27,619 nt of DNA from NCBI GenBank assembly GCA_046757025.1, contig JBHHXN010000057.1, positions 1 to 27,619 of the forward strand, written 5' to 3'. Source of the stretch: a bacterium (lineage in GTDB: Bacteria; Zhuqueibacterota; Zhuqueibacteria; Oceanimicrobiales; Oceanimicrobiaceae). The notes under the pieces were generated by a model. It worked only from the letters and a program-made list of their open reading frames with translations, was not told the origin of the DNA and did no database searches. Shown here in pieces: positions 6,519 to 25,480 of the stretch (position 1 is the first letter of the stretch; each line of letters opens with the position of its first letter). A program made the translations under genes and the position numbers.

Positions 6519-7823
6519 TCAGTTTCCGACATTTCGATTTAAATTCGCCAGAAACAAGTGCGCGAGTTTTCTGGCATTTTTGTGTAAATTAAATTTGCGT
6601 ACCACGCGTTCTCTAGCGGCCTCTCCCATCTTTTTTCGCAGTATGGGATCCATTGACAGCCATTTCAGCGCGTCGGCCAGCGCGGGCACGTCGCCTGGAG
6701 CCACCAGCAAGCCGGTCTCGCCGTTTTCAACCAGCTCCGGTATGCCGGACAATTTGCTTGATACCACCGCCAGTCCGCTGGCCATGGCCTCCATGAGCAC
6801 AACCGGAATGCCTTCGCGTTTTCCTTGCCTGGTTGGCACGCTGGGCAGCACTTTCACATCGGCCAGGGCGTGCATTTTTAAGATCTCGGGCCGCGGCAGC
6901 GCCGAGTAGATCAATATTTTATCCTGCAATCCCGCTTCCTTTACCTGCCTCCGCACTTTGTTTTTGAGTGGCCCGTAACCGACTAAATGACATTGAAACG
7001 AAATGCCGTCTTTGACCAGCAGCTTGCAAGCTTCCACCAGGTACTGGTGGCCTTTCACTTCTTCAAAAGAAGCCACGCACAAAATTTGAAACGGTCGGCC
7101 GTTTTTAATCTTCTGGGAGGGGGTAAATTCATCCACATCCACACCGCAGTGTACCACGTGAATTTTGCCATGCATTTTTTCGCCACATTCTCTTAGCATC
7201 ACTTTTTTGTTGTACTGTGAAATAGCTACGGCAAACGCCGATGCCGCCACCTTGCGGTCGAGCATGCGGCGTTCTACGTGCAGATCCGAACCGTGCGCGG
7301 TGAAACTGTACGGAATGCCGGTCAACCGATGGACGATGAGCGCAGCCAGCGCCGGATGGTTGGAAAAATGCGCGTGCAAATGCATGATACCCAACCGCTC
7401 CATGGCGAGCGCCATGCACACGGTTTTCGGGAAAAGCCCCAGAGCGCCCAGAAAAAAATTCAGGCTGCCGAAAGTACCTGTTAGCACTTCGAATAACACT
7501 TTTAAATAGGCTTTGGGCTTATGAAAAAGATAATGAAAATGCGCGGCCAGAATCGACAGCGAAATTATGGGCAGAAACCAGGCGCGCCGCACCATTTTTT
7601 GGGCTTCCGGATGCATCACCGATTGTTTTTCATGAATCAACGGGAAAATCTCCACCTGCACGCCCATCTTCTCCAGGGCTAAGATTTCGTAGAGAATAAA
7701 CGTTTCGGTGAGCTTGGGAAAACGCGACATTGTGTAAGCGATTTTTAATTTGCGTCGGCCATTGGATGCATGGCTCGGCGATTTTGCAACGGTTCTGATT
7801 TTTTCAGTTTGCAGCGTGGTCAT
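6519..7823 (-). CDS. Glycosyltransferase family 4 (WcaL-like)
   Basis: Motifs IAY..SRFPKLTETFIL.EI, HLHAHF, PYSFTAHGSD, KG, and EGIPVVLMEAMASG (EX7E). The ATG at 7823 has AAGGAG upstream (track start 7844) and overlaps the deacetylase stop. Confidence 0.92.
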   Translation of the reverse strand: MTTLQTEKIRTVAKSPSHASNGRRKLKIAYTMSRFPKLTETFILYEILALEKMGVQVEIFPLIHEKQSVMHPEAQKMVRRAWFLPIISLSILAAHFHYLFHKPKAYLKVLFEVLTGTFGSLNFFLGALGLFPKTVCMALAMERLGIMHLHAHFSNHPALAALIVHRLTGIPYSFTAHGSDLHVERRMLDRKVAASAFAVAISQYNKKVMLRECGEKMHGKIHVVHCGVDVDEFTPSQKIKNGRPFQILCVASFEEVKGHQYLVEACKLLVKDGISFQCHLVGYGPLKNKVRRQVKEAGLQDKILIYSALPRPEILKMHALADVKVLPSVPTRQGKREGIPVVLMEAMASGLAVVSSKLSGIPELVENGETGLLVAPGDVPALADALKWLSMDPILRKKMGEAARERVVRKFNLHKNARKLAHLFLANLNRNVGN

Positions 7824-8826
7824 GTGACTCCTTTTCGAATTCAATGGTCGAGGTAATCTCCTGTATGCGCTTCCGCATACGAAAGCGCTCGACGCTGGAA
7901 AACCAGCGTGTCAGCCGCAGCCGAAACACCAGCTCAGTGGAACGCGGCGTGATATTGATCCGCCGAATTCGAAACAGGTCAGCCGTGCTCAGATCATTGT
8001 GCCCGGCAGGCCCATTGAATCCCAGCAAAAATCCTTCTTCTTTGAGAATGTTGACGATCCCATCATGGTGACCGCCATCAGGATAGGAAAATATCGGCAA
8101 CACCGAACCGATTTCCTTCTTCAAATCATTTTGTGACTGGATGATTTCTTCCCGCGCAGCCTGCAGCGGCAGACGCGTGAGAATGGGATGCGTGCGAGTG
8201 TGAGCGCCCAGAGTCACACCGTCTGAGGCCAGCTTCCTGAGTTCTTCCCATCTGTGTACCGGGCTGGCGGGATTCTTAGCTATTTCCGCTTGTTGGTAGA
8301 TTTCATCCACCAGCGCCATTGCCGCAGTGTGAGGTTTATTTTTTATCCAGGTCTGTACGCATTTCAACCCTTGCCGTCGCTGTTCGGATGAAGCCAGAGG
8401 AATGTCTCCCAGTTCGGCTAACTGCAGGCACTGGCGCTGCGAGTGCATGATCGCTTGATGCAGTTGGTCCCACCAGAAGCGGTTTTCTGGACGATCCGGA
8501 TACGCTGTCGGAACAAACACGGTGACGGGCAGCCGCCATTTTTTGAGCACTGGCCAGGCGTTTTCGCCGAAATCGCGGTAGGCGTCGTCAAAGGTGATGA
8601 GTACGGCGCGCTTTGGCAGCGGGCAGCCGTTTCTTACAGACTGCAGCAAATCGGCCATGGCGATGACTTGAAAGTTTTCTTTTAGAAACATCATCTGCTG
8701 GGCAAACAGGGCGGGCGTAGCGCTGATCAATCCCGGATTCAGATGCGGCCCGGCTTGTAATTCCGCCACCCGGTGATAGGTTAATACATGAAAAGTATTT
8801 GCACTTTTTCCATTTGAATTAAACAT
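7804..8826 (-). CDS. Polysaccharide deacetylase (CE4/NodB-like)
   Basis: Motifs VLTYHRV, VLITFDDAYRD, GAHTRTHPIL and FSYPDG. Confidence 0.92.
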   Translation of the reverse strand: MFNSNGKSANTFHVLTYHRVAELQAGPHLNPGLISATPALFAQQMMFLKENFQVIAMADLLQSVRNGCPLPKRAVLITFDDAYRDFGENAWPVLKKWRLPVTVFVPTAYPDRPENRFWWDQLHQAIMHSQRQCLQLAELGDIPLASSEQRRQGLKCVQTWIKNKPHTAAMALVDEIYQQAEIAKNPASPVHRWEELRKLASDGVTLGAHTRTHPILTRLPLQAAREEIIQSQNDLKKEIGSVLPIFSYPDGGHHDGIVNILKEEGFLLGFNGPAGHNDLSTADLFRIRRINITPRSTELVFRLRLTRWFSSVERFRMRKRIQEITSTIEFEKESHDHAAN

Positions 8827-10179: not shown

Positions 10180-10971
10180 CTAAACCGCTCCCTTCTGATT
10201 GAAATTACAAATCAATTCCCTTACCTCTTTCACTACCTGGTTCAAGCTGCGATTGGCGTCTACCAGAGCAAAATTTTTTGCTACGTTTTTCAAACTTTGA
10301 TATTGCTGGCGACGGCTTTCGATATATTCCACTGAAAATTCTTTTTTTCGTTTAAAAATGATTTCGGCGGGTGCGTCTAAACAGATCACTAAATCGGGAT
10401 CCGGAATGGTATGTTTCAGTAGAAATCCGTGCAGCCGGCGTTTCAAGGTTCGATGACCGTTTTGCGCTGCGATATCAAAGTGGTAGTAATCGTAAACAAA
10501 ATGCCGATCCATCAGCACCACAAATCCCCGGCGCTTAAAATAAGCCACCATAAAATAACGATACCATTCGTCCAAAATGCGGTTTACAAATCCGATGGCC
10601 TTTTTGACCAGTTTCATAATCCGCTGTCCGCCGGAGCGCGGCGATTCTGACTGCGCAGCCCGTCGTTTAAAATCGGCCGGCGATGGCGCCCTCGTGAGTT
10701 TCTGGCCCGTGCCTCTGCGCTGCTGGCGTTTTTTCCACCAACGTGTGGTGGGTAAAATGTAGTTGCACGATTCGATGTTATCTCCCATGTAGATGTATTT
10801 CACCGCCATGGGCAAAAGCTCCTTCACCTTTGCCGTAACCGTGGTTTTGCCCACGCCATCCGGACCGATCAAGCACACCGTAAACCGACTACGACCGTGT
10901 GTACGAACGACTGTCACCTCCGATTTCACTAGACCTGCGCTTTTACAATTTTTTTCGGAATTCCTGGACAT
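10180..10971 (-). CDS. Thymidylate-kinase-like P-loop kinase (substrate unknown)
   Basis: P-loop GPDGVGKTT, DR motif (LMDRHFVYD), PDPDLVICLDAP...KRK.E and VDANRS. Paralogous to the C-terminal half of 19671-21041. Confidence 0.8.
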   Translation of the reverse strand: MSRNSEKNCKSAGLVKSEVTVVRTHGRSRFTVCLIGPDGVGKTTVTAKVKELLPMAVKYIYMGDNIESCNYILPTTRWWKKRQQRRGTGQKLTRAPSPADFKRRAAQSESPRSGGQRIMKLVKKAIGFVNRILDEWYRYFMVAYFKRRGFVVLMDRHFVYDYYHFDIAAQNGHRTLKRRLHGFLLKHTIPDPDLVICLDAPAEIIFKRKKEFSVEYIESRRQQYQSLKNVAKNFALVDANRSLNQVVKEVRELICNFNQKGAV

Positions 10972-11045
10972 TTATTAACTTGATTTCCAATCGTTCATCT
11001 ACTTTAACCATTAAATATTACCCTCGAATGCCTTGCTTCGAAGAA

Positions 11046-12092
11046 TTATCGCGCCTCCCTAAAATCCAGTTCCTCAAAATACTCCACGGCGTGCTGCCAC
11101 AGGGCAAAATACCGGTTGTGGCGGAGCCAGTCGGCTGTGGTCGCCGACATCCTGGTCGGATCGCTTTCCTGCTGGTGCAGCCGCATGGCCAGGCCGGCGA
11201 CGTAACGGCACCAGCACAGCACAAACAGCGGCTTTAATTGTTTGGCAGAAATTTGCAGGGCATGGCCGTATTTTTGAATGTGGGGTTTAGCCCAGGCATT
11301 TGCACCCCAGAAAGCGTTGTGGAAAGCCGCGAGGTAGTGCGTGCGTTTGCGCGCGGTTTTTCTGGCAAAAGCGAGGTAAGTCAAAAAGAAAAATAAATCG
11401 GCGGCCGGCAATCCTCGAGGTTCGGCAAGCTCCCAATCCACCACCGCAATTTGATCAGGCGCGGCAAACAGAATATTGGGTGCGCTGAAATCGCCGTGCT
11501 CAAACACCAGAGGCAGCGTGTCATTCCACAAGGTATTCGTGATTGTGCGAGTTTTTTGCAGCAAAGTTTTTTCTGCAGCCGATAGCGGTACGGCAGCGTT
11601 CAGATTCTGCAGTGGTCGTTGAATCAACCTCTCGAACCAGGTGCGGTCTGCTTCGGTTTTTGTCCTCGAAATCAAATGCAAGTCAAGCAGCCAACCCAAG
11701 CCGGTCTGCAAGCAGCTCTCAGGCATTTTCCGTACCGTTGACTGGCGCATGGTATCGAACGGCAGGGCGGTTTCCACCAGCAACCGGTGCTCCAAATAAT
11801 CTTCATAAGCGATGACACTCGGAATGGATTCAAATCCGCTTGGCTTTAGTGTGTGTACCCGGCGCAGGTTCTCCACTTCCCGATCCAGACGCCGGTGGTC
11901 TCCCGGCAGTCGCGGTACTTTCACCACCAGAAACGGCTGCGAGCGATTTTCCGATAGGATGAACAGGATCAAATGGCTGGAAGCTTTGAAGCGCGGCGTC
12001 ATCCACACGCAGGACCAGCGCGACGGCGCGCCATACGCTTGCAGCTGCAAACGCCGTCGGTTTTCGGTCAAAAAAGTCAGAACCGTATTCAT
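11046..12092 (-). CDS. Aminoglycoside phosphotransferase/choline kinase-like protein
   Basis: VVK lysine, Brenner motif HGDFSAPNIL and VVDWE. Likely start is the ATG at 12092 (MNTVL), 8 nt after the upstream stop; the track start at 12134 is a TTG. Confidence 0.85.
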   Translation of the reverse strand: MNTVLTFLTENRRRLQLQAYGAPSRWSCVWMTPRFKASSHLILFILSENRSQPFLVVKVPRLPGDHRRLDREVENLRRVHTLKPSGFESIPSVIAYEDYLEHRLLVETALPFDTMRQSTVRKMPESCLQTGLGWLLDLHLISRTKTEADRTWFERLIQRPLQNLNAAVPLSAAEKTLLQKTRTITNTLWNDTLPLVFEHGDFSAPNILFAAPDQIAVVDWELAEPRGLPAADLFFFLTYLAFARKTARKRTHYLAAFHNAFWGANAWAKPHIQKYGHALQISAKQLKPLFVLCWCRYVAGLAMRLHQQESDPTRMSATTADWLRHNRYFALWQHAVEYFEELDFREAR

Positions 12093-12100
12093 AAATTCAA

Positions 12101-12811
12101 TCAAACGCGCTTGCAAGCCACCAGGCTCAGACAAGGCGCCAGGTATTTCAGCAAGTTTAATTTATTCAAAAAACCACCGCCCGCTATTTTGAGCTTGCCA
12201 ATTAAATCGGCCCGTTCACGTGAGAAAAAATAATTCAACGCGGTTTCGTCATTCAGTGAAACGATATCGAGACAATTTTCAAAATTGGGTCGATGCCAGT
12301 AAAATTCAATTTCCCGAAATCCGGCCAGCTCGCACAGATTGGCTGCCTCATTTAAATGGCTGGCCGCAAAACCTGAGCGCTTCTTTTCAGACACGAAATC
12401 TTTTAGCCATTGCCACAACGACCTAAGCTGAAATTGGCGATCGATCTCCCAGTACAAAAAGCCGTCGGGTTTCACCAGCGCAGCGGCTCGCTGCAATTCA
12501 GAACCATCCGAAGAGCAGACCACCAGCAAATCAAGCGCTTTATCGGGTGAGCTGCGGTGCGGGTCCGAACAGCTTTTATTCAGCAAGCACACGCTTTCGC
12601 TAAAATAGCGCAAGGCTGAAATCAGGATCGGTTTTTCAGCGCCGATGTAAGCCACACGCCGCAGCTGCGGATCCGGCAAAAGAAAGCGCCAATCTAGTCT
12701 GCGAATCAATTCACTTTCTGCCAAGCTCTCCTCCACCCGAGCGGTCCGATTTGGAGACAAGTCAACTCCCGTTGTCTGTGTTGCAGTGGAAATCATTTCG
12801 GTTTGTTTCAT
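12101..12811 (-). CDS. Hypothetical protein with a degenerate class I SAM-methyltransferase-like fold
   Basis: Motifs DLLVV...LVKPDGFLYWEI and LAGFREIEFYWHRP, with no GxGxG loop (VAYIG instead). DWRFLLP is shared with the N-terminus of 16369-18081. Confidence 0.6.
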   Translation of the reverse strand: MKQTEMISTATQTTGVDLSPNRTARVEESLAESELIRRLDWRFLLPDPQLRRVAYIGAEKPILISALRYFSESVCLLNKSCSDPHRSSPDKALDLLVVCSSDGSELQRAAALVKPDGFLYWEIDRQFQLRSLWQWLKDFVSEKKRSGFAASHLNEAANLCELAGFREIEFYWHRPNFENCLDIVSLNDETALNYFFSRERADLIGKLKIAGGGFLNKLNLLKYLAPCLSLVACKRV

Positions 12812-12836: not shown

Positions 12837-14462
12837 TCAAGGCGTTTGCAAGGGAGTAGAATTAAAGGGTACGCTTTCCACCGTTCTCACCTTTGGGGTG
12901 GTTTGCTCCTCTTTCTGCTCGGTTTCGGCCGCCATTTCGCGATAAATATGCACAAAAGCGCCAGAGATGGCCAGGAGAAACCACAAATATCTCTGATACG
13001 AAAGATGGAGAAAAATCGCGGTTCCGAGGTATGCCAAAATCGCAAACCACAACGACATGGCGAGGTACGCCATGTCCGGTTTCAATTTCACACTTGCACG
13101 TCGGATATGCCAGAGCCGGTACATCATCAGAAAAATGATGCTCATGAACACTCCGAATCCTAACAGGCCGAATTCCGCCATAAATTCAAAATACAGCGTA
13201 TGCGCTCTTCTATTTCTACCGAGAAAGCGGAAGGCGATATCCGGGTCGCTTTGGTACTCGTTGGAGTAAAATTCAGTATATTGCGCCGGTCCCACGCCGA
13301 GCACCGGATAATCGAGAAAAGCCATGAAAGCCGCCAGCATTTCCGTGAGCCGGCCGCGGGTGGTGCCGTCCGGGCGCACTTCGGCTGATTTTGAAAACAA
13401 TCCTTCGATGCCGCGTAACGTGTCCACTCGGGCAAAATAACCCGGCGCCGCCACGATCATCATCAGAATCACCACCAGCACCGTAGCCACAATTTGCCCG
13501 GGACGAATGTACTTAAAAAGTGCCAGCAGAAAAAACAGCATCACCATAGTTAAAAAAGTGCCGCGGGAATATGTGAGCAAAACCCCGCCTAAAATGATCA
13601 GGGTGGAAAACAGGGCAAAATATTTCAAAAACTTTTTACGCTCCCCCCAAAACCGGAACAGCGCCAGGGGCAACAGCACTACCATGATCTGGGCATAACG
13701 GTTGGGCTTGCCGATGGGGCCGCCGGAGCGATTTTTACCGCCTACTTTTTCACGCGATTTGATGATGCCGCCCTGACCGTAAACATCGCCGTAGAATTCA
13801 TCCTCAAACTCGATCTCTTTGCTTCTCTGAGCCAGACCCCAAAATGTGGATTTGTAATCGCTAAATAGCTCCTGATACAAACTCATGCTGCCAAGAAGCG
13901 TGCCCACAAACAACAGCATCCAGACTACCTTTTTAAAGATGGTGAGGTTGCGTATGACATTCACAAACAAAAAGTACAGAGCCACGCCCTCTAACAAATA
14001 TTCCAGAATCCAGGCTAAAGAGCGATCTATATCGATGGACATCAGCAAAGTGGAAGCCGTGGCCAGGGCTAAAAACAATATCATCAACAAAAATGGGTAA
14101 TCGATGATAATTTTCTGCCGACGGATGAACAGGTAATTGGCCAGCGGCAGACAGAGCAGAAGACTGAAAGAGCCGGCCACAACGCCCGGTACACCATGCA
14201 GAGTTTTTGCCACCACCGCCAGGTTGGTGTAAAATACAAATACTACTGCCAGGGTAGCGGATTCGGGTTTGGTGATGGACAGCACCACGATGAGGACCCC
14301 GAAAACCGCGCCCAACAGCAGAGTTTTATCGGCGTTGAAAATAGTGTACCCGATGGCAGGCAGTGCCAGTAATAAAGCGCCGAACAATAAAAATGGCAGC
14401 CATTTCGATCGGGCGGAAGATAAATGGCGGATTCCGGAGGCGTTCCGTTTTTTACTCAACAT
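12837..14462 (-). CDS. O-antigen ligase/Wzy polymerase family membrane protein
   Basis: About 12 or more hydrophobic segments. Motifs GPIGKPNRYAQ, LTYSRG, R......A...F.DYPVLGVGP..Y and AHTLY.EF.AEFGLLG (Wzy_C pattern). Confidence 0.88.
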   Translation of the reverse strand: MLSKKRNASGIRHLSSARSKWLPFLLFGALLLALPAIGYTIFNADKTLLLGAVFGVLIVVLSITKPESATLAVVFVFYTNLAVVAKTLHGVPGVVAGSFSLLLCLPLANYLFIRRQKIIIDYPFLLMILFLALATASTLLMSIDIDRSLAWILEYLLEGVALYFLFVNVIRNLTIFKKVVWMLLFVGTLLGSMSLYQELFSDYKSTFWGLAQRSKEIEFEDEFYGDVYGQGGIIKSREKVGGKNRSGGPIGKPNRYAQIMVVLLPLALFRFWGERKKFLKYFALFSTLIILGGVLLTYSRGTFLTMVMLFFLLALFKYIRPGQIVATVLVVILMMIVAAPGYFARVDTLRGIEGLFSKSAEVRPDGTTRGRLTEMLAAFMAFLDYPVLGVGPAQYTEFYSNEYQSDPDIAFRFLGRNRRAHTLYFEFMAEFGLLGFGVFMSIIFLMMYRLWHIRRASVKLKPDMAYLAMSLWFAILAYLGTAIFLHLSYQRYLWFLLAISGAFVHIYREMAAETEQKEEQTTPKVRTVESVPFNSTPLQTP

Positions 14463-14939: not shown

Positions 14940-16367
14940 CTAATTCACATACCCCAGAGCCCGCAGCCGTTCCGAAAGTGCTTCATCGAACACCGCTTCC
15001 CTTTTTTCTAACTGATGGTTTTCGTGCTCCCGCATCCAGTTTTCCAATTGAGCTTGCAGTTGGGCTGCAATATCGGTTTCTTTATTAATCAGATTTTGAT
15101 TCTCCTGCGGATCGGTTTGTAAATCGTAAAGCTCGTGCTCGCCTGTGGATTTCCAGATGAATTTGTATCGTTTATTTTTCAATGACTTGATCTGTATGCT
15201 GTTCAAACTTTTAGGAGCCGTGTTTTCTGAAATGGTGAATTCGCGCAACGGCTCAGCCTTCAGTTTGCACAGGCATTGAAATCCATTGCAGTTAATTTTC
15301 GCAGAAGCCACCCCAGCCAACTCCAGAATGGTCGGGAACAGGTCGCTCAATTGCACCAATTCGCTGTTGCGCACGCCGGCTTTAAAACGCTCGGGATAGC
15401 GCACGATCAAAGGCACGTGGGTTAGCTGCTCAAACAGCACTTTACGATGACCCAGCTCTTCATGCTCGCCCAGGCTGTCCCCATGATCCGACGTGATGAT
15501 GACCACGGTGTTATCCAGAAGGTTGAGGGATTTTAAAAATTCCAGCAGCTCGCCAATTTTGTGGTCGAGATAATTGAGCTCTCCGTCATAAAGCGCGGTC
15601 ATGATTTCTAAATCTTCCTTTTTCTTCCGAGGATCTCCGTTGAGCACCCGGGCTTTGTCCGGCGGCACCTGCAACACCCGCCAGGGGGAGTATTTTGACG
15701 GCATGAATTTTCGGTCGTACGGATGCGGCGGATGGTATTTTTCATGGCATTCCATGTAATTGACGAACAGGTAAAACGGCTTTTCCGCATCGCGCGAAGT
15801 CGATAGCCATCGTTTTATCATATCATTGGTCAAGCTGGCGCCGTTGTCTTTTTTCACCTTCTGGCCTTTGAAAATCTTTTTCACACGGCTGGCCATTTGC
15901 AGGAAGGCAATGAGCGGCTCGCCTGCTTTTCCAAATTTACGCAATTGAATTTTGATGTGCGACAGGCGGGTGCGTTTAATGCCGCGAGGATTGATTTTGC
16001 GCCAAACGTCTTCCAACAAATCAAAACCCTGTCCCAATCCTGTGTTTTGACTGATGTAGGCGTTGTTTGAAAAGCAGCAAGTTTGATAACCCTCTTCCTT
16101 CAAAATCTGCGCCAGCGTCGGATAATCTTCCGGCAAAGCGTCCTTAGAAATCGTCACGCCGTGGTTGAGCGGATACAAGCCGGTAAACAGCGAGGTATGG
16201 ACTGGCAGAGTCCAGCAGCCCTCTGAAGTGGTTCGCTCAAACAGCGTCCCTTCTTCGGCAAATTTATCGATATTTGGTGTGGTGGCTCGCGCATAGCCAT
16301 AACACGATAAATTGGCCGCTCGTACAGAATCCATGACAATTAAGAGGATATTCGGCTTTGGTTGCAT
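14940..16367 (-). CDS. Sulfatase-like hydrolase/transferase (alkaline phosphatase superfamily), cytoplasmic, with Thr at the nucleophile position
   Basis: Motifs PNILLIVMDSVRA, WTLPVHTSLFTG.YP..HG, TSDHGDSLGEH, HVPLIV and ELYDLQTDPQE, ending LRALGY. The ATG at 16367 has GGAG 6 nt upstream (track start 16382). No signal peptide. Confidence 0.88.
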   Translation of the reverse strand: MQPKPNILLIVMDSVRAANLSCYGYARATTPNIDKFAEEGTLFERTTSEGCWTLPVHTSLFTGLYPLNHGVTISKDALPEDYPTLAQILKEEGYQTCCFSNNAYISQNTGLGQGFDLLEDVWRKINPRGIKRTRLSHIKIQLRKFGKAGEPLIAFLQMASRVKKIFKGQKVKKDNGASLTNDMIKRWLSTSRDAEKPFYLFVNYMECHEKYHPPHPYDRKFMPSKYSPWRVLQVPPDKARVLNGDPRKKKEDLEIMTALYDGELNYLDHKIGELLEFLKSLNLLDNTVVIITSDHGDSLGEHEELGHRKVLFEQLTHVPLIVRYPERFKAGVRNSELVQLSDLFPTILELAGVASAKINCNGFQCLCKLKAEPLREFTISENTAPKSLNSIQIKSLKNKRYKFIWKSTGEHELYDLQTDPQENQNLINKETDIAAQLQAQLENWMREHENHQLEKREAVFDEALSERLRALGYVN

Positions 16368-16368
16368 T

Positions 16369-18081
16369 TTATACTCCATCATTTTGACTTAATGAAAACA
16401 ATCGTTGTAAAACAGGTGTGTTTTTATGCTCGATGGCCACCCGCAGTAAATTGACGTAGTGACCGGAATCCAGGGTTTGCGCCGACAGACGGGTGGCTTC
16501 CTTCAAGGCTCGATGTACCCAGCAGGTGTAAAACAACGGTTCAAGCAGGTTTTTGTTTATCTGCAAAGTTTCGCAATAATGTTCACAGACTTCGATTAGC
16601 AGCGTGCCCAGTTCCGAAGGCATTAAAATATTTTGCTCAAAAGCCAGCAGCGAATTGTGCACGCCGGATTTTCGAAACATAATGGTGCCAAAAGTTTTGA
16701 CAAAATAGAACAGATCCCAGAGCGGCATACCCAGCGGTTCGGCGGCTTCCCAGTCCACATACGCAATTTTCCGATTGTCGGTAATGATGACATTCCAGCA
16801 GCCGGCGTCGCCATGTTGAAACACCAACGGAAACGACGAATCGGCCAGAGCCAGGCGGTCGATCTGTTCGGAAAGAAAACTCAAATGGCTTTCGTGCATC
16901 TTATAAATTCGTGCAAAACGGCTCAACAGCTCACGCAGGGAATTGACCATTTTGGGCAGCTCGTCTTCATCGATGCGCTGTACTGTTTTTTGGGCAAAAT
17001 CCGTAAGCCAGGCGATGGTTGCCCGGGCAAACGGGCAGCCCGCAGAAGCTACTGTGCACTCGCTCAATGATTCCCCGCTGATGACTTTCTGGCCTACCAC
17101 CGCCAGATTGCCGTGATAATCCAGAAACAGCGGTTCCGGATAAGAGTCGCATTCAACGATATTTTGATCCCGTAGTTTATTCAAAGCAGTGTATTCGTTT
17201 TCCAATCGGTAGTTAAATTCCGGGCTGCGGGTCAATTTGATCACCATCACCGGTTTATCCGCTTCCCGGGAAAACAGGTAAAACACGATCTTTTTGGCAT
17301 TGTAACGCCCGCCGGCAGAAACACACCAGCTATATGCCGACAGATCCAAGCCCGCTTTCTGACCGATGGTGAGCAGATAGTCGGGCGGGGCGTCCAGAAT
17401 TTCCGGCGCGGTCATCCCCCTGATAATGGCCCGGGGATACGACCCGAGCAACTTTCCGTACGAACGCAACAGCTTATTTTTCAGCGAACGCCCGTTGAGC
17501 ATTTTTTCGGTAAAGAACTTACCTGTCTCTCGGTCATTCAGCGGAACAGCCAGCCGCATCCGTCCCAACGCGGGCGCCAGCCAGTACTCCTGAGTGTAAC
17601 CGGCGCCATCTTCAACCAAATTGCTTTTTAACAGGCGAATGAGCCGGCGGCCCAATAAGCCATCGACTTTCAAAAAGACCACACCAGTCGGTTTGAGTAT
17701 CTGAGACAATTGCATCAAATCTTGTTTACCTTTGATGATTTTGCTGAAGTGTTTGCGGGTGGTGGCGAAAACCAAATCCACGCTTTTTTCCGATAAAACC
17801 GGTTTGTACGAATCTTTGATCAGCAGCATGCGGAGGTTTTTGACATTGCGGTTGTTCAGAGCATTATAGTAGAGATCGATTTTTAATTGATGGTTAGCGA
17901 AGATGAACAGCTCCCGGCACATTTTGGACAGCACCACCGTGGTGGAAATGGGGGGCATGCCCACGCAGACAATGGTATCCATTTCCAGATTTGGCAGCAG
18001 AAACCGCCAGTCTGCCGACACCATGTCACCCTTGCGATTGGTGCCCGGTGTAAAATCCGTATTTAAAGTCGTACTCAACAT
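16369..18081 (-). CDS. Fusion of a degenerate methyltransferase-like N-domain and an APH/choline-kinase-like C-domain
   Basis: N-domain: ADWRFLLP and VDLVF...ILKPTGVVFL. C-domain: VIK, HGDAGCWNVI and VDWEAAEPLGMPLWDLFYF. ATG at 18081 (TTG at 18084). Confidence 0.8.
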   Translation of the reverse strand: MLSTTLNTDFTPGTNRKGDMVSADWRFLLPNLEMDTIVCVGMPPISTTVVLSKMCRELFIFANHQLKIDLYYNALNNRNVKNLRMLLIKDSYKPVLSEKSVDLVFATTRKHFSKIIKGKQDLMQLSQILKPTGVVFLKVDGLLGRRLIRLLKSNLVEDGAGYTQEYWLAPALGRMRLAVPLNDRETGKFFTEKMLNGRSLKNKLLRSYGKLLGSYPRAIIRGMTAPEILDAPPDYLLTIGQKAGLDLSAYSWCVSAGGRYNAKKIVFYLFSREADKPVMVIKLTRSPEFNYRLENEYTALNKLRDQNIVECDSYPEPLFLDYHGNLAVVGQKVISGESLSECTVASAGCPFARATIAWLTDFAQKTVQRIDEDELPKMVNSLRELLSRFARIYKMHESHLSFLSEQIDRLALADSSFPLVFQHGDAGCWNVIITDNRKIAYVDWEAAEPLGMPLWDLFYFVKTFGTIMFRKSGVHNSLLAFEQNILMPSELGTLLIEVCEHYCETLQINKNLLEPLFYTCWVHRALKEATRLSAQTLDSGHYVNLLRVAIEHKNTPVLQRLFSLSQNDGV

Positions 18082-18092
18082 CAAAACCGCCG

Positions 18093-19667
18093 CTACTTCA
18101 TTTTGGGGAATTTTAATTTAAAAATAGTTCCGATCACGGGAATCTTAAGCAATTCCGGAAACGTCTCCTCCACATTGAGCTTGTCCCGAGAAAGCATGAA
18201 CAAAACCATCGAAAAAATCGCTGCCACCGGAATGAGTACGTACACGCTTTTCGTCAAGAAAAATTGGATCAGGAAAAGAATCGTGGCTGCTGCAATGACC
18301 AGCACATAAAAAGAGAAATATTTCCATTCAAAAATGTGGATATCTGTCGCCAACTTTAAACCCGCTTGTTTGAAAATATTGTGTATAAACAAAGCGCCCG
18401 TGGTGGCAATGGCTGCGCCCAGAGCGCCATATTTCGGTATTAACACGAAAGCCAGAACCAGGTTGAGAAACGCGGCTGCAAAATTCAATATGACAACATA
18501 ACGAATTTTTCCCAGCACTTTTAAAGTCAGACCATTAAAACCCAGCGCGACATTGAAATAATATCCCAGTGCAAACAAGTGCATGTACACCCAGGAGGAC
18601 TCGTAGCGTGCGCCATAGAGAAAAAGCGTCAGCGGTTTGGCCAGCGAAAAAGTCAGGGCGAAAATCGGAAAAGACAGCACCGACATCCAGATGGCAGTAC
18701 GCCAGTAGAGATCGTTGATGGCTTTAAAATCGTTTTTTGCAAACAAGCGCGCTGCTAACGGCGTGTAAAGAATCGCGAAACTCATCATAGGAATTTTATT
18801 AAAATGCGCTGCGGGTAAAATCGCCCGAAACGCCGCTACCTGTGTGGTATCATGAAAATAACCCAGGAGCAAGGTGTCGGCTGAATGCATGACAATCGTC
18901 ACCAGATCCGAAGTGAGCAAAGGGATGGTAAAGGCAAAAATTTCCTTTGCGGGAATTTTCATGGCTTTGAGTTTCAAACGCTGCAAAATGCCATTCCGGT
19001 GCCAGGTACGCAGCAGCAGCCATATAAAAAACAACATGCCCGCTGCGCTGCCGGTAAGATAACCGTACGCCAAAAACACCACACTGCTTTTCAAAAAAAT
19101 AAGCAGCATCACTACAGTCAATTTCAGCCCCGGCGCCACCACAAACTTGCGAAAGAAGATCGCTTTGGGACTACCAAAACTGGCGAACAGCGCCACCAGC
19201 AAACCGTCAAACGCTTCCACCGGCACCATGAAAATCAAAATCAACAGCAGGTTCACCGGCTGTTCTTTGTCCTTGATCAAGCGGGCAATGAGCTCCGGTG
19301 AATAATGCATGGCCCCGACGATCAGGATGGCAGTGAGAATAATCGTGCCGACGGTGAGTACCAGCGTGCCGGTCAACTTGTCGTATTCATCCCGTTCATG
19401 GTAGATGGGAATAAACCGCGTGATTCCGCGTCGTAAACCCAGCGAAGAAAGACCGTGAAAAAAAGCCACCACCGACAGTCCATAGGCAAACGCGCCGTAA
19501 TCCGTGGTGGTGAGATACCGAACCATGAGTACCTGGGAAGCAAAGTTCAACCCGGTGGACACAAACCGACCCATCAGCAGTAAACTGGAGCCGCGTATTT
19601 GTTTCCTGGTCGTATCCTGCTTTTTGGATTTTTTAGGATGAATTTCTGTTTGGACTTCCGCTTCCAT
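18093..19667 (-). CDS. wzx: Wzx-type oligosaccharide flippase (MOP superfamily)
   Basis: About 14 hydrophobic segments. Motifs R.L...DYG.F, LGL...ITRFIP, D.LLLGYF and LIPKYGALGAAIAT. The start directly follows TAA-TAG of the upstream gene. Confidence 0.92.
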   Translation of the reverse strand: MEAEVQTEIHPKKSKKQDTTRKQIRGSSLLLMGRFVSTGLNFASQVLMVRYLTTTDYGAFAYGLSVVAFFHGLSSLGLRRGITRFIPIYHERDEYDKLTGTLVLTVGTIILTAILIVGAMHYSPELIARLIKDKEQPVNLLLILIFMVPVEAFDGLLVALFASFGSPKAIFFRKFVVAPGLKLTVVMLLIFLKSSVVFLAYGYLTGSAAGMLFFIWLLLRTWHRNGILQRLKLKAMKIPAKEIFAFTIPLLTSDLVTIVMHSADTLLLGYFHDTTQVAAFRAILPAAHFNKIPMMSFAILYTPLAARLFAKNDFKAINDLYWRTAIWMSVLSFPIFALTFSLAKPLTLFLYGARYESSWVYMHLFALGYYFNVALGFNGLTLKVLGKIRYVVILNFAAAFLNLVLAFVLIPKYGALGAAIATTGALFIHNIFKQAGLKLATDIHIFEWKYFSFYVLVIAAATILFLIQFFLTKSVYVLIPVAAIFSMVLFMLSRDKLNVEETFPELLKIPVIGTIFKLKFPKMK

Positions 19668-19670
19668 CTA

Positions 19671-21041
19671 TTATCTTTTATGACTTTCCCGGTATTGCTG
19701 CCAGATCAAGGCAGTCACTTCACTTTTCACGCTTTCCGTTGATTGGGTCGCATCCACCACGCGCATATTCGATATTTTATCGACCAATTTGAGATAGCTC
19801 TGCCGCTGCTGTTCCAGCCAGGCCGGTGAATGCTCGCCTTTACGCTGAAACAAAACGTCTCCGGGCGCATCTAATAAAACCACCAATTCCGGTTGCGGCA
19901 GTCCGCCTTCAAACAACCCTCTGCGAATCCGCTTCCAAACCGAGTCGGATTTTTTGTGGAGCCATGAATCATAGATGTATCGATCGAATACAACTATCCT
20001 TCCCCGCAGGATGTGGTAGTGCGCAACCAAAGCACATAACCAGCGTTCCAGCAGTTTGTTGCAAAAATTCAGCCCTTTTAACCAAATTTGAAATGGATTT
20101 TTGGAAGCAGCCCGTCCATTCCGCGATTTTATGTGCTGGTGCAGCCACGCGCTGCCGGGCAGCTTAACGGTTCGGGCCTGGACGTTGCCGCCCAGGTAAA
20201 CGCGTCGGGCTTTCAACCGGAGGTCATTTGTCAACGCCACAGCCAGCGAGGACTTGCCGGCGCCGTCGGGAGCTAGCAGCGCCACCGCCAGTCCGCGCTG
20301 GTGCAGGGCAAACAACAGCGGCCGCAACCGCTGGAGTAACCGATTGTACAACGCATGCCAGGTGCTGCTCCACGGATCCCGTTTGCGAAATTGAATCGTC
20401 AACTCCCGGCGCTTCGCTTCGATGGCAGACCAATCTTTCGTAGCCAAAACCTGCTCAAGAAACGCCATGGAAATGGCCGGCGCTAAAAAGCGCTGGCTGA
20501 AAGATTCGACCTTTCGCTCAAAAGCCTCGTCTCTTTGGCGCCACAGTTGAATTAAGCGCCGTCGGTGAGCCGCCCGAATTTGATTTTTATCCAGCAATCC
20601 GTGCAGCAGCAGGGCGATAAATTCATGAGCCGGCGACAGCATCGAAATGTCTCTCTGAACTCTTTCCCGTAAAAAGGTCTCAGCCAGATTTACACGGAAT
20701 TTACGGATGGGCGCGCCAAAAAAGATATCGGTCACCACATCGAGTTTAACCCAGTTGTTTCGTGATTTCTCGAATGCCAAAAAAAAGCGATGCGGCGCGT
20801 GCCCCCAGGCAGGCCATGGCACAAAGCCCAGCTCAGCCACACAATCAGCCAGCTTGCACAACTGACTTTTTGGCACCAGCAAATCAATTTCCAGAAAATC
20901 GCTGGTGTTTTGCAGCTCATCGGCTCCTCGGAGCAAACAGTACGCAATGCCCGCTGCTTGTAACCGCTTGAATATATTTTGTACCAACAAGTTCGAAGGG
21001 ACGCTTTTTATTTCGCTGTCAATAGTTAATTCTGAATTCAT
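19671..21041 (-). CDS. Fusion of a nucleotidyltransferase-like N-domain and a thymidylate-kinase-like C-domain
   Basis: N-domain: YCLLRG...LEIDLLV...KLDVV (Pol-beta-like acidic triad, first Asp replaced by Glu). C-domain: APDGAGKSS, VFDRYIYD, PQPELVVLLDAP...QRKGE and VVDATQS. Confidence 0.7.
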   Translation of the reverse strand: MNSELTIDSEIKSVPSNLLVQNIFKRLQAAGIAYCLLRGADELQNTSDFLEIDLLVPKSQLCKLADCVAELGFVPWPAWGHAPHRFFLAFEKSRNNWVKLDVVTDIFFGAPIRKFRVNLAETFLRERVQRDISMLSPAHEFIALLLHGLLDKNQIRAAHRRRLIQLWRQRDEAFERKVESFSQRFLAPAISMAFLEQVLATKDWSAIEAKRRELTIQFRKRDPWSSTWHALYNRLLQRLRPLLFALHQRGLAVALLAPDGAGKSSLAVALTNDLRLKARRVYLGGNVQARTVKLPGSAWLHQHIKSRNGRAASKNPFQIWLKGLNFCNKLLERWLCALVAHYHILRGRIVVFDRYIYDSWLHKKSDSVWKRIRRGLFEGGLPQPELVVLLDAPGDVLFQRKGEHSPAWLEQQRQSYLKLVDKISNMRVVDATQSTESVKSEVTALIWQQYRESHKR

Positions 21042-21176: not shown

Positions 21177-21926
21177 TCAGAACAGAAAATTCTGGCCGAT
21201 CAAAATCACACCGTACGTAAAAATGAATGCCGTGATCAGGTGTTGGTAAACCGCGTTGGTTGATTTGAGATAGACGAGGTTGCCCACTGTTCGCGACGTC
21301 AGCAGCGCCAGCCCGGCAAATAGCAAACTTTTTAAGCTCAACACTTCAGGATTAAGTACACTCAAAACCGCGATCTGCGAAATCGCAAACACCAGGTAAC
21401 CATAAGCAATGTTGGCACGGATTGTTTGCTTTTCCTCATAAACGGCCGTGATGAACACCGTTAAAAATCCACCGCCCATGTTGGACAGCCCGTGGATCAA
21501 TCCCATCAACATCAAGTACAGTTTTGTGTATTTTGTTAAAAAACGGCTGAGCAAAGACTGAAGGCCGCGGGTGGTTCGTATCATAGCGCTCACCACCAGC
21601 ATCCCTCCCACCAGCACTTTTATCTCCAGTTCTACGATGTTGGTTAAAATCGCCGCTAATCCCAAAACAATAAACGGAACCGAATACACCAGAAAATGGC
21701 TTTTGAATTTTTGTAGATGCTTTTTTCCTGCATGCACCTGCATCAGGCTGATGAGCATGGATGACGGCAGTAAAAAAGCAATGGTGCTTTGAAAATCGTA
21801 TCCCGCCAACAGCATGGTGGGGGTTCCAAACACCAGCAGCCCCACACCGAAAATAGATTGCACTGTAGAATAAACGATGATCAAAATGGTCAGAAAATAG
21901 ATGTTGTCCATAAGGTTAAACTCCAT
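21177..21926 (-). CDS. TauE/SafE (TSUP) family sulfite/organosulfur transporter
   Basis: About 8 hydrophobic segments with two glycine-rich repeats (QSIFGVGLLVFGTP and GLIHGLSNMGGG). Alternative start at 21911 with GGAG upstream. Confidence 0.8.
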   Translation of the reverse strand: MEFNLMDNIYFLTILIIVYSTVQSIFGVGLLVFGTPTMLLAGYDFQSTIAFLLPSSMLISLMQVHAGKKHLQKFKSHFLVYSVPFIVLGLAAILTNIVELEIKVLVGGMLVVSAMIRTTRGLQSLLSRFLTKYTKLYLMLMGLIHGLSNMGGGFLTVFITAVYEEKQTIRANIAYGYLVFAISQIAVLSVLNPEVLSLKSLLFAGLALLTSRTVGNLVYLKSTNAVYQHLITAFIFTYGVILIGQNFLF

Positions 21927-22084: not shown

Positions 22085-22975
22085 TCAGGCAAATTCTGAT
22101 ACTTCGCTGTCGCTGTTCACACGATCATAAAACTGCATCAAAAGTTTTCCTTCCTCCTCAGTGAGATACTTTTTCCATTTGTCGGACAGATTCAGTATTT
22201 TAGTGGAATCGATCACTTTTTCAAATTCATCGTACCACTCGAGCTCACAGAAATCCAGAATTTCCCGCAGATATTTTTTCGGCTGGGTTGTAAAAACTTC
22301 GTAATCGATTTCATAGCAGCGGTCGGGAAACCGGGCGATGTTGTTGCGAATATCGTCGATATCCAGTTGGGTTTTTATGGCTGCGGAAAGCAGGGGACCG
22401 CCGCCCAGCTCTTTCCAGATTTGTCGATAGCGCGGCGGCACCTCTCCCCATTCCCACTCCTCGCTGTCGATAGCACCGGTGACATTCAACCAGCCTGCGT
22501 TTACCCACGATGTCACCACCGACACCGGATTCCTGCGAATGTAGATGAAGCGGATGCCTGGGAAAATGCGCTCGAAAAGCGCCATGCGCGCCCAGCCGGT
22601 CACTTTGAAAAGCAGGCGCGGCTTATTCTGATATTTCAGGATTTTTGCGACGGCCCGCCTCAGTGGCTCGATGGATTCCGGTGGTACATCCTCGGCGTAA
22701 AGAGGACGATCATGCCGACGAATTCCGGGAACATACTGCTCCCAGAATTTGTAGGGACTGAACGGTTTGGGAAAATATCTTTCCTCTTTTATCTTGTCAA
22801 AAATGGGCCAGTGGTACAAATTTGAAAACAACGCCAACCACGTGAGCTTCGGAAAAACCTGTTGGTAGGTAGAGAGCCAGCCCAAATCTTTGTGCTGGGC
22901 TAAAATCCGATAAAACATAGTGGAACCGCTGCGTCCGGTGCACACGATCATCACCGGTTTTTCAATTCTATTCAT
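22085..22975 (-). CDS. PAPS-dependent sulfotransferase family protein
   Basis: 5'-PSB loop IVCTGRSGSTM, 3'-PB motif FIYIRRNPVSVVTSW, and YE.F...P...LREILDFCELEW. No signal peptide. Confidence 0.88.
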   Translation of the reverse strand: MNRIEKPVMIVCTGRSGSTMFYRILAQHKDLGWLSTYQQVFPKLTWLALFSNLYHWPIFDKIKEERYFPKPFSPYKFWEQYVPGIRRHDRPLYAEDVPPESIEPLRRAVAKILKYQNKPRLLFKVTGWARMALFERIFPGIRFIYIRRNPVSVVTSWVNAGWLNVTGAIDSEEWEWGEVPPRYRQIWKELGGGPLLSAAIKTQLDIDDIRNNIARFPDRCYEIDYEVFTTQPKKYLREILDFCELEWYDEFEKVIDSTKILNLSDKWKKYLTEEEGKLLMQFYDRVNSDSEVSEFA

Positions 22976-23215
22976 CAACCTAAACCTTTAAATTCAACGT
23001 TCTGGATTTCTGTCTTGACTATGTTGTTCTCATTCTAAAACTAAAATTTTGGAACGCAATTGTACTCCGACAGGAAACAAGTCTGGCCTTAATTTGAACA
23101 TCCAACCATGCCTATCTGCAGGTTCCTGTGGTGGAAACATTCCAATCAGCATGGGCAATCTGTTGCCTCATGACTAATACAATATAATTCGACACGAACG
23201 GGCTGCAAATTTAAC

Positions 23216-25378
23216 TCAATCATAAAATACCGGACGGTTCTGAGATATTTCTGTGCGTAGCAGATCCTGCACGCTTTCACGAATCAACCATGCCGGCAGG
23301 CGCTCGTTTTTCTGCAGCGCCTGCCGGATGCGTCCGCCGCTGATGGGCAATGTGGACGGTGTCTTCTTTTCGCCGTACGTTTTCGTCTGAGGGTCATAAC
23401 CCACCTGGTCGAAAAAGATCGGCACGATCTCAATGTCATGCAGCTTCTCGAAAAGCCGACGAGTGTCAGCATCGTTGTAGTAACTGTCCACGCCGGTGTG
23501 ATCGCGGCCCACCACAAAATGACTGCAGCCCATGTTTTTACGACAGAGCGCTGTGAAAACCGCTTCTCTTGGACCGCAGTAACGTGAATAGGTCGAGAAC
23601 GCCCCCAGCACGACCTTTCCGGGCGGATACACGCATTCGTCCAGCAGCAGTTTATAGCTTTTGAGGATGGGTTCCGCTAAAAAATCACCCGACTTTTTCG
23701 GACCGATGACCGGACTGATATAAAGCCCGTCCGCATGCACCAAATCCAGGGCGTTGATTTGAATATATTCATGTGCTTTGTGCGGCACGTTGCGGGTGTG
23801 AAATCCAACTACTTTGCTCCAACCTTTTTGGGTGAAAATCATGCGGGTCTGTGCCGGCGTCAATTCATAATGCTGGTACGGCGAAGCCATCTTCTCCATC
23901 AGAATAATTTCTCCGGCCAAAAAACGATCTCCGCCTTCAAATAAACGAGCCACGCCGGGATGTTTTCGGGAACTTGTACCGAACCATTTTTTTGCCACCC
24001 CGGCGAAGTCCACCGTGAAGATTTCACTGATTTTCAGGGTGGCGTAGATTTTCCCGCTATCATCCGTCAAGGCAATGCGTTCGCCCACCACCATGCTGTT
24101 AATGCGGCTTTTTTCGGTCTGCAGCACAATGGGCATGGTCCAAGCCAGTCCGTTCGGCAGCCGATGGTTTTCGAGCACACTATCCATTTCTGCTTTGTTC
24201 ATGAATCCCATCAGTGGCGAGTAGGTGCCGTTGGCAATTTGCACACAATCCAGCAGATCGGTGTATTTCACTTTCAGGGTTTTTAAATTTTGCAATTTCT
24301 GACGCTCATCGTATTGCACCTCGCGATTAACCAGCTCGCCACCGTGTGGTTCAATCAAAAGCGAAATCGGTGCGGAAGTGTAGTGCATTCGCTGCCAGCG
24401 GTGATTGTTCTCAAATTCCCCGATGATTTTCTTTACCATGCTCGCGGCAGAGACTGGAAAATCACCGATGGCGGTTTCCGCTGCCAGAACCAAACCGTCG
24501 GCTCCGTCCATGAGCGTGTTGTAAACATCGTTGACTTCCGCCCGTGTGGGATTGGGCGACGTGACCATGGACTCCATGAGATTGGTCGCCACATATACGT
24601 TGACCCCCGCAACTTTACCATAACGAATGATGTCTTTTTGCATCGCCGGTATTTTTTCGATGTTCACCTGCCGCGACAGATCCCCCCTGTCTATCAACAG
24701 TGCATCGGATTTTTCAGCAATCTCGGCCAGATTTTGCAGGCCGTTCAAGCACTCGATTTTGGAGATTACGGTGGCCTGTGGGTGAGCTGCCGCTCGAATC
24801 TCTTCTACATCCTGTGCGCGGTTGGCAAAAGAGAGCGCCACATGCCGAATGCCCATTTTTTTACCGATGGCAAGGGCTTTTTCATCTTTTTCCGAGAGCG
24901 CCGACATTTCGATCTCTCGCTCCAGAATGGTGATGGCTTTGTTCTGACCAATTTCACCGCCGTTTAGCACCCACAGCACCGCGCCCTCTTCATCCACAGC
25001 GATGACCTGCGCCAGCACTTCGGCGTCGATCTTCAACAAATCGCCCACGCGTAGTTTCTGCACGATTTCAACGGGGTTGAGATGAAAAAACTTTTCATCC
25101 CCTGCCATCTCATACCGACTAATGCGGAAAGAGCGGTTCTCACGAACCGTGACTTTACCAACCGCAAACTCTCCGGTACGGATTTGCGCACCTTCGGTAT
25201 CTAAACAAATTGGCACGGAAGTTCGACTCTGAATATATTTTAATATTTGAGCGACATCTTCTGTTTTTGTGTGAGACAAATTCAGTCTGAATAAACTCAC
25301 GCCAGCCTCTTCCAGTCGACCGATGACCCGGTCGTTTAAAGACGAAGGACCCAGCGTACACCAGATTTCTTTTTTCAT
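23216..25378 (-). CDS. sat: Pyruvate kinase (barrel + B domain, no C domain) fused to ATP sulfurylase (Sat/Met3 type)
   Basis: Residues 1 to about 325: CTLGPSS, RLNLSH, LDTEGAQIRTG, SKIE, RGDL, ATNLMESM, PTRAEVND and ETAIG. Residues about 340 to 720: PHGGELVNR, YSPLMGFM, WTMPIVL, HTRN.PHKAHEY, GPREAV and RKNMGCSHFVVGRDH. One uninterrupted ORF. Confidence 0.93.
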   Translation of the reverse strand: MKKEIWCTLGPSSLNDRVIGRLEEAGVSLFRLNLSHTKTEDVAQILKYIQSRTSVPICLDTEGAQIRTGEFAVGKVTVRENRSFRISRYEMAGDEKFFHLNPVEIVQKLRVGDLLKIDAEVLAQVIAVDEEGAVLWVLNGGEIGQNKAITILEREIEMSALSEKDEKALAIGKKMGIRHVALSFANRAQDVEEIRAAAHPQATVISKIECLNGLQNLAEIAEKSDALLIDRGDLSRQVNIEKIPAMQKDIIRYGKVAGVNVYVATNLMESMVTSPNPTRAEVNDVYNTLMDGADGLVLAAETAIGDFPVSAASMVKKIIGEFENNHRWQRMHYTSAPISLLIEPHGGELVNREVQYDERQKLQNLKTLKVKYTDLLDCVQIANGTYSPLMGFMNKAEMDSVLENHRLPNGLAWTMPIVLQTEKSRINSMVVGERIALTDDSGKIYATLKISEIFTVDFAGVAKKWFGTSSRKHPGVARLFEGGDRFLAGEIILMEKMASPYQHYELTPAQTRMIFTQKGWSKVVGFHTRNVPHKAHEYIQINALDLVHADGLYISPVIGPKKSGDFLAEPILKSYKLLLDECVYPPGKVVLGAFSTYSRYCGPREAVFTALCRKNMGCSHFVVGRDHTGVDSYYNDADTRRLFEKLHDIEIVPIFFDQVGYDPQTKTYGEKKTPSTLPISGGRIRQALQKNERLPAWLIRESVQDLLRTEISQNRPVFYD

Positions 25379-25480
25379 TATGACTAAACGACTCCTTTAA
25401 CAATTCACTCTATTTTCGTTGATGTGGATTCTGAGCTGCTGCAATGTTTGGCGAACTGTTATACACTACCAAAGCTCCGC

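Follow-up and report, generated by a model that had tools for sequence, protein, structure and literature searches.

A pyruvate kinase-like family fused to ATP sulfurylase, with a predicted role in bacterial PAPS supply

Sulfate activation is known to proceed through two ATP sulfurylase folds, with the reaction pulled forward by pyrophosphatase, by GTP or by APS kinase. Enzymes of the Sat type (M. thermolithotrophicus, 8a8d; T. thermophilus, 1v47; PRK04149 and TIGR00339) combine a PUA domain with a nucleotidyltransferase fold carrying the HXXH, RN, RKN and GRDH motifs. The GTP-coupled ATP sulfurylase CysD-CysN(C) joins sulfate activation to an extra energy module, and we know of no case in which the CysN GTPase substitutes for CysD. 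In Sat-APS kinase and PAPS synthase (2gks, PAPSS) the supply of PAPS is achieved by fusion. According to the available part of PMC2275785, Sat is also fused to inorganic pyrophosphatase (PPase) in stramenopiles and haptophytes, including diatoms. Such a helper could make the unfavourable equilibrium of Sat less of a burden. The pulls on Sat named in the available part of PMC3734648 are cleavage of pyrophosphate (PPi), APS kinase and reduction.

The window analysed here, a stretch of 27,619 nucleotides of bacterial DNA, encodes a fusion in which the helper attached to Sat has the fold of pyruvate kinase (PK); this half and its relatives are hereafter termed PKL. Unlike the partner in the Sat-PPase fusions, PKL persists where Sat is absent. 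The folds are unrelated to those of CysD-CysN(C), and PKL occurs without any sulfurylase; related alphaproteobacteria carry CysD-CysNC beside an HTH regulator at a glycan locus, and PKL-Sat with APS kinase is placed likewise in locus L020. In contrast to PAPS synthase, the window fusion has no APS kinase domain, two APS kinases being encoded elsewhere in the genome, although PK-Sat-APS kinase triples do exist. We tentatively propose that the PKL half may itself make activated sulfate (APS or PAPS), probably driven by phosphoenolpyruvate (PEP), for the sulfation of surface glycans. The features of the locus are collected in Table 1.

Table 1. Features of the fusion gene and its surroundings in the window.
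Feature	Position	Strand	Remarks
PKL-Sat fusion gene	23216..25378	(-)	720 aa, stop-free ORF
PK-like barrel + B (lid) domain	24446..25375	(-)	residues 2-311
Low-confidence linker	24362..24403	(-)	residues 326-339, AlphaFold model
Sat N-terminal PUA-like domain	23894..24355	(-)	residues 342-495, Pfam
ATP sulfurylase catalytic domain	23252..23872	(-)	residues 503-709, Pfam
Shine-Dalgarno-like AAGGAG	25392..25397	(-)	13 nt upstream of fusion ATG
Two paralogous ORFs upstream of fusion, 273 and 265 aa	25481..27398	(-)	without Pfam match
Sulfotransferase (Sulfotransfer_3), likely PAPS consumer	22085..22978	(-)	Pfam; 237-bp gap after fusion
TauE/SafE transporter, recurrent beside PKL genes	21177..21926	(-)	Pfam
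Wzx-type flippase (Polysacc_synt)	18093..19667	(-)	Pfam
Sulfatase-family protein	14940..16382	(-)	Pfam + NCBIfam
O-antigen ligase/Wzy-like protein	12837..14462	(-)	Pfam
GT4 glycosyltransferase + polysaccharide deacetylase	6519..8826	(-)	Pfam

The first-pass annotation had read the gene as a single frame in which a Sat-type sulfurylase stands in place of the C-terminal allosteric domain of an unregulated PK, and the domain analysis agrees. Pfam matched PK (E 7e-72), PUA_2 and ATP-sulfurylase in the fusion protein (P0001), the latter two above cut-off at 146 and 213 bits, and returned no match for PK_C or for the APS kinase domain PF01583. According to the available part of PMC10176505, some PK isozymes also lack the C-terminal allosteric domain. 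The AlphaFold model of the fusion, computed from 32 homologues, has a mean pLDDT of 87.5 and falls below 50 only in the linker. Its Sat half superimposes on 8a8d with a TM-score by target of 0.94 and 1.8 Å rmsd, and its PK half resembles solved PK structures, with the folds of both the A barrel and the B domain present. The same three Pfam domains recur in 120 of 120 homologues among the matches listed (120 listed of 2290 matches among 8000 scored candidates), which share 55–71% identity with the fusion. Contigs from four runs of one study, three of which may be the source itself, cross the junction with two listed differences, both synonymous. Together these homologues and contigs exclude an assembly artefact at the junction. 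No description of an enzyme with this architecture was found in full-text literature, a scope that leaves out most subscription journals, in keeping with what the annotation had supposed; no sequence among the best 60 from the PDB covers both halves, and the available parts of PMC10117803 and PMC13291958 mention no pyruvate kinase.

Directly after the fusion comes the sulfotransferase gene, as first described, and then TauE. The presence of this sulfotransferase and of glycan genes on the same strand supports the earlier proposal that the fusion is tied to PAPS supply for glycan sulfation. The two upstream paralogous ORFs recur in four related loci (L012, L022, L209 and L211). These loci further match the window in genes of the glycan locus at 10180-12134 and 16369-21041, two of which resemble thymidylate kinase and two APH phosphotransferase. 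The source genome is 94.8% complete and holds a normal Pyk, two further Sat genes and two APS kinases; at that completeness it gave no match for CysD or for family I PPase. The separate Pyk, whose presence the annotation had wished to see checked, rules out that the PK half is the housekeeping enzyme of this genome. Elsewhere in the same genome (contig C1, L083:994-3630), an 878-residue protein joins Sat to a domain of the type I phosphodiesterase/nucleotide pyrophosphatase kind, and an APS kinase gene lies just downstream; this architecture is common to an ESM Atlas cluster of 61, and one protein (P0189) has phosphodiesterase, PK and Sat in one chain.

The claim of a complete PK barrel stands for the barrel itself, but the active site is non-canonical. 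Like pyruvate kinase (PF00224; P. aeruginosa 7oo1, E. coli PykF), PKL has the A barrel, the B lid and the R-N-S-H, D, R, K-x-E, RGD, T and E residues of phosphoryl transfer and metal binding, all present in the window protein (R31, N33, S35, H36, D60, R67, K147, K207, E209, R231, G232, D233, T265, R279 and E301). It differs from pyruvate kinase in the missing C domain, in the motifs DRGDLSR, ATNL, VLAAE and D[TS]EGAQ, and in a lid without DDG; the substituted positions in the window protein are T37, E62, A64, Q65, D230, S235, R236, N266, L267, V297 and A299. These were compared across 186 fused and 119 short PKL proteins (some of them pieces cut by contig ends) and 26 housekeeping PKs, namely 25 from fusion-carrying genomes and the window genome's own Pyk. 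D230, which turns ARGD into DRGD, is found in 305 of 305 PKL proteins, where all 26 controls have Ala. The change from TQM to TNL is equally strict (N266 in 305/305 versus Gln in 25/26; L267 in 305/305 versus Met in 26/26), as is nearly that from MLS to VLA (V297 in 303/305 versus Met in 26/26; A299 in 304/305 versus Ser in 26/26). SHG becomes SHT in 295 PKL proteins, with Gly in 21 controls, and the lid reads DF[NHD] or DA[ED]. K207, E209 and G232, like the other residues of the RGD-T-E core, are preserved in 304–305 of 305, and the TxGP adenine-pocket motif is invariant. The swapped positions would belong to the pocket for C3 of pyruvate, to the proton relay, to the adenine pocket and to the second Mg site.

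PKL is 33% identical to the source genome's own Pyk and scores below every PK equivalog cut-off. A quick IQ-TREE analysis covered 91 rows, some subsampled and some selected by hand, and separated PKL, whether fused or stand-alone, from housekeeping PKs by a branch with SH-aLRT 99; since the tree is quick and rooted at the midpoint, it yields no order of events. Judged by its residues, the PK half is a distinct subfamily whose substrate pocket appears rebuilt. Exchange of positions fixed in housekeeping PKs around a conserved transfer core points towards sulfate activation by PKL, as does its retention in genomes of which 39 of 44 also hold a full, normal housekeeping PK. Two long-branch fusions (P0185, with a C domain, and P0197, in Sat-PK order) have a near-canonical PK that already carries DRGD. 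Another PK-like protein without a C domain (L205:2409-3392; 327 aa, with FCRGDLGTF and AGQV) falls outside the PKL signature and lies near LPS heptosyltransferase-like genes.

The Sat half of the window protein keeps FHTRNVPHKAH, RYCGPREA, RKNMG and GRDH, and its residues R529, N530, H533, H536, R613 and G624-H627 align with those of 8a8d and 1v47. Compared with these enzymes it has the N-terminal PKL, lacks zinc-binding cysteines and has His527 for the Gln of FQTRN, which is presumably a sulfate ligand; His is found in 181 of 196 rows. The NCBIfam whole-protein scores lie just under the cut-offs (372 against 387 for PRK04149; 303 against 323 for TIGR00339). The half looks intact and is predicted, from knowledge of the family, to convert ATP and sulfate to APS and PPi. 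Intact Sat motifs in 163 of 196 fusions, that of the window included, are the main weakness of the proposal that PKL makes activated sulfate, as they would be odd if PKL made APS. The remaining 33 of 196, a count of rows before any removal of redundancy and mostly from related lineages, have retained the PK motifs but no longer have at least three of the six Sat motif residues. Among these 33 the PK half is 83% identical and the Sat half 69%, and one of the copies belongs to a relative in the window's own family (L209). That PKL outlives Sat favours its having a sulfate-activating role, although all seven of the dead-Sat genomes searched hold another Sat.

That other Sat could be served in trans if PKL were to remove the PPi formed by the sulfurylase, as a PPase or a PEP- or ATP-linked PPi consumer, and so pull Sat forward; Asp230 would then replace the substrate carboxylate or serve as a base. 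The known Sat-PPase fusions (PMC2275785, in its available part) are a precedent, and the source genome gave no family I PPase match. The invariant adenine-pocket motif and the direct fusion of PKL to APS kinase in one protein (P0223) argue against PPi removal, as does a family I PPase in 24 of 45 carrier genomes. We regard this reading as unlikely.

PKL persists without Sat, and among the sequences compared its lasting partner appears to be APS kinase or sulfotransferase. Representatives include PK-Sat-APS kinase, PK-APS kinase, PK-CBS, Sat-PK, full PK-Sat, PK with shrunken Sat remnants and PK alone. APS kinase is fused to PKL in P0223, P0151, P0157 and P0159, the last three with a PF01583 match. 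Units of TauE-PKL-APS kinase or PKL-APS kinase occur in eight metagenome loci (L155-158, L160, L162, L164 and L167), with no Sat in their fetched flanks and with a sulfotransferase also in L157 and L158. These units are a weak point in favour of sulfate activation by PKL, since an APS kinase that stands by itself in its cluster can depend on housekeeping CysDN (PMC13291958, in its available part). Stand-alone PKL genes follow sulfotransferases in Terriglobales-like loci; some lie near a Sat-APS kinase gene (L099), which counts against the proposal.

Phage contigs carry PKL as well; matches among GenBank phages are 29–35% identical. In L169 (4581-5513) the PKL gene overlaps one for a sulfotransferase, and what may be a remnant of Sat (E 0.024) comes after PKL; L168 (5995-6969) and L254 (7509-8462) have no recognised sulfur genes. 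Neighbours of the phage PKL genes of L168, L254 and L169 are, in turn, a preceding nuclease/SMC-like pair (89-kb contig), Clp protease-like and FkbM methyltransferase genes, and 2OG-Fe(II) oxygenases. Lidless barrels of 219–277 residues bear the PKL signature (L243, P0388-P0410, P0422 and P0431). One of them, a 245-residue protein on a phage contig (L243:501-1235), is encoded near a sulfotransferase-like gene, with transketolase-like, SDR and methyltransferase genes also nearby. The 23 aligned lidless sequences keep TxGP, R-N-S, K-x-E and DRGD/ATNL/LAAE and have lost R67 and K147; retention of the barrel site with loss of nucleotide-phosphate residues would suit a PPi-consuming enzyme. Because the PKL barrel persists where Sat has decayed or is missing, new chemistry seems likely, rather than ATP recycling alone, and overall the function of PKL is probably non-canonical.

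The fusion is widespread as a family, yet rare and patchy among genomes: it was found in 9 of 167 genomes of the window's phylum, and two further samples of 401 genomes each yielded 3 and 2, all counts taking in the centres. Of 112 genome loci, 80 were kept; they represent many phyla and come mostly from metagenome-assembled genomes (MAGs), plus rhizobial isolates. Plasmid matches comprise two rhizobial fusions, one of which (H1) has no annotation, ESM Atlas matches carry automatic PK names only, and the RNA data sets list no carrier of the fusion. With neighbours called by tblastn to labelled reference proteins, an APS kinase, sulfotransferase or TauE gene was found in 64 of the 80 loci from genomes and in 55 of 80 from metagenomes, and glycan genes in 55 of the 80 from genomes. 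Within 300 bp of the PKL gene, an APS kinase or sulfotransferase lies in 97 of the 155 loci with a called gene. In 31 of 40 adjacent APS kinases, the Arg that follows LGFxxxx in three solved APS kinases, and which we take to be a sulfate ligand, is missing. Sulfation loci repeatedly encode a membrane protein of the Na/H exchanger family (18 of 80 genome loci; for example L047:12211-13584 and L235:4309-5538). This protein, which may transport sulfate or PAPS, is also found next to an ordinary pair of Sat and APS kinase. In five loci (L060, L061, L045, L149 and L218) PPDK-like, glutamine amidotransferase and nucleotidyltransferase genes accompany the fusion, some with a second APS-kinase-like gene, a set that resembles the Campylobacter phosphoramidate pathway. 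One fusion (L115:7995-10167) is split into two overlapping frames within the PUA domain, by a frameshift or a sequencing error.

Sulfotransferase lies within 300 bp in 51 of the 155 loci, and sulfotransferase-PKL pairs without APS kinase occur in the Terriglobales-like loci and in phage contig L169. Such pairs would be expected if PKL took over from CysQ in dealing with PAP, which sulfotransferases release and which inhibits, either by removing a phosphate from it or by adding one; CysQ-like genes are found in none of the 80 genome loci. Metagenome loci do have them (5 of 80), a CysQ-like match exists in 28 of 45 genomes, and in L156 a DHH/DHHA1 phosphoesterase follows APS kinase; a role in PAP handling appears improbable. 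The presence of family I PPase (24/45) or of CysQ-like genes (28/45) failed as a discriminator between readings, there being no control group and the genomes being incomplete.

APS kinase is the second commonest gene adjacent to PKL, and this frequency, together with the two APS kinases of the source genome, rules out that the PK half replaces that enzyme. The first-pass annotation had proposed that PK regenerates ATP locally to drive the formation of APS and PAPS; as a direct pull on Sat, this fails on chemistry. ADP is a product of APS kinase, and Sat neither uses nor forms it, which leaves APS kinase as the one step where recycling of ATP can help. An unregulated pyruvate kinase might in this way return the ADP of APS kinase to ATP and limit the enzyme-ADP-APS dead-end complex documented in the available part of PMC3734648. 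All metal, K+ and phosphate ligands are kept, in line with such recycling, and APS kinase lies within 300 bp of PKL in 49 of 155 loci and is fused to it in the four proteins named above. Moreover, P0185 combines Sat with a complete PK that has DRGD and the C domain, and lidless E. coli PK is reportedly still catalytic. Crenarchaeal PKs have Gln at the K+ position (PMC4374775, in its available part). Recycling leaves unexplained, however, the five swaps at positions fixed in housekeeping PKs, the upkeep of PKL beside a housekeeping PK in those 39 genomes, and a lidless branch that lost R67 and K147 and kept the signature. We consider it somewhat unlikely, though nearly as probable as sulfate activation by PKL and more probable than removal of PPi.

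The strongest lead comes from one alphaproteobacterial order, represented by 45 genomes at least 70% complete. APS kinase is present in 41, and in 35 of these it lies in a frame of at least 572 residues, the size of CysNC or Sat-APS kinase; six fetched long-frame examples have the CysN start motif and two are Sat-APS kinase. In a further two, APS kinase and Sat are neighbours, and in one more the contig ends within the APS kinase. CysN or Sat thus accompanies APS kinase in 37 of the 41. In the remaining three (G335, G1039 and G1040), PKL lies directly upstream of APS kinase in a two-gene unit (336 and 185 aa) outside glycan clusters, the PKL of G1040 and G1039 being 89% and 65% identical to that of G335. 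These MAGs, drawn at at least 85% and at least 70% completeness, gave no match to Sat or to CysD/CysH (PF01507).

Such complementarity with CysN and Sat argues for sulfate activation by PKL. Recycling of ADP leaves unexplained an APS kinase with no source of APS, and removal of PPi sits poorly with PKL and APS kinase in genomes without Sat or CysD. Against the proposal, the three MAGs represent only two lineages, and AprA may still be present, as a search for it found none in five genomes but its control was silent too. The three genomes also gave no sulfotransferase match by PF13469, PF00685 or PF19798, which speaks against PAP handling as well; PF19798 matched in only 1 of 45 genomes, so its absence says little. 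Between G335 and G1040, dN/dS is 0.14 for PKL and 0.18 for APS kinase, and 0.05–0.10 for four neighbours. Both genes are under purifying selection, and the pair may be a relic, given ratios above those of the neighbours and no sulfotransferase found.

Our preferred reading, that PKL makes activated sulfate, can be set out as a mechanism. In the window fusion the Sat half would convert ATP and sulfate to APS and PPi, APS kinase encoded elsewhere in the genome would form PAPS, and the next-door sulfotransferase would consume it. In PKL, the conserved adenine pocket would bind AMP (or PAP), and sulfate would sit where the beta phosphate normally does; PEP would phosphorylate sulfate, and the sulfuryl group would then pass to the nucleotide, giving the net reaction AMP + SO4 + PEP -> APS + Pi + pyruvate. 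This would cost about +18 kJ/mol, compared with about +46 for Sat alone. PK may also transfer the sulfuryl group of sulfoenolpyruvate, although no account of this was found in the full-text literature. We know of no enzyme with the proposed chemistry. In a PK crystal sulfate fills the beta and gamma phosphate sites (PMC3467265, in its available part), a further point in favour. Against it stands the statement, in the available part of the review PMC10176505, that no known PK homologue lacks canonical PK activity; its supplement holds no substitution data on PK positions. In its stronger form, the PK fold would have given rise to a new enzyme of sulfate activation, which uses PEP and needs no ATP sulfurylase, produces APS or turns PAP back into PAPS, and can replace CysD/CysN or Sat, as in the three genomes; this form is possible, if rather doubtful. 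It is quite unlikely that PKL does some chemistry other than those considered here.

What is new is that the PK half of the fusion is, by the comparisons above, a distinct subfamily that outlives Sat; the parts are known. This subfamily tied to PAPS supply takes in hundreds of genes from bacteria, and some from phages, whose annotation reads pyruvate kinase and which may for that reason be miscounted as glycolytic. There is a fair chance of new enzymology in PKL. If it only recycles ADP, the fusion would be a natural PAPS synthase with built-in recycling. If it makes APS or PAPS, it would be a PK homologue without canonical PK function, would supply activated sulfate without recourse to any known sulfurylase, and could become a tool for cheap PAPS regeneration in glycan sulfation.
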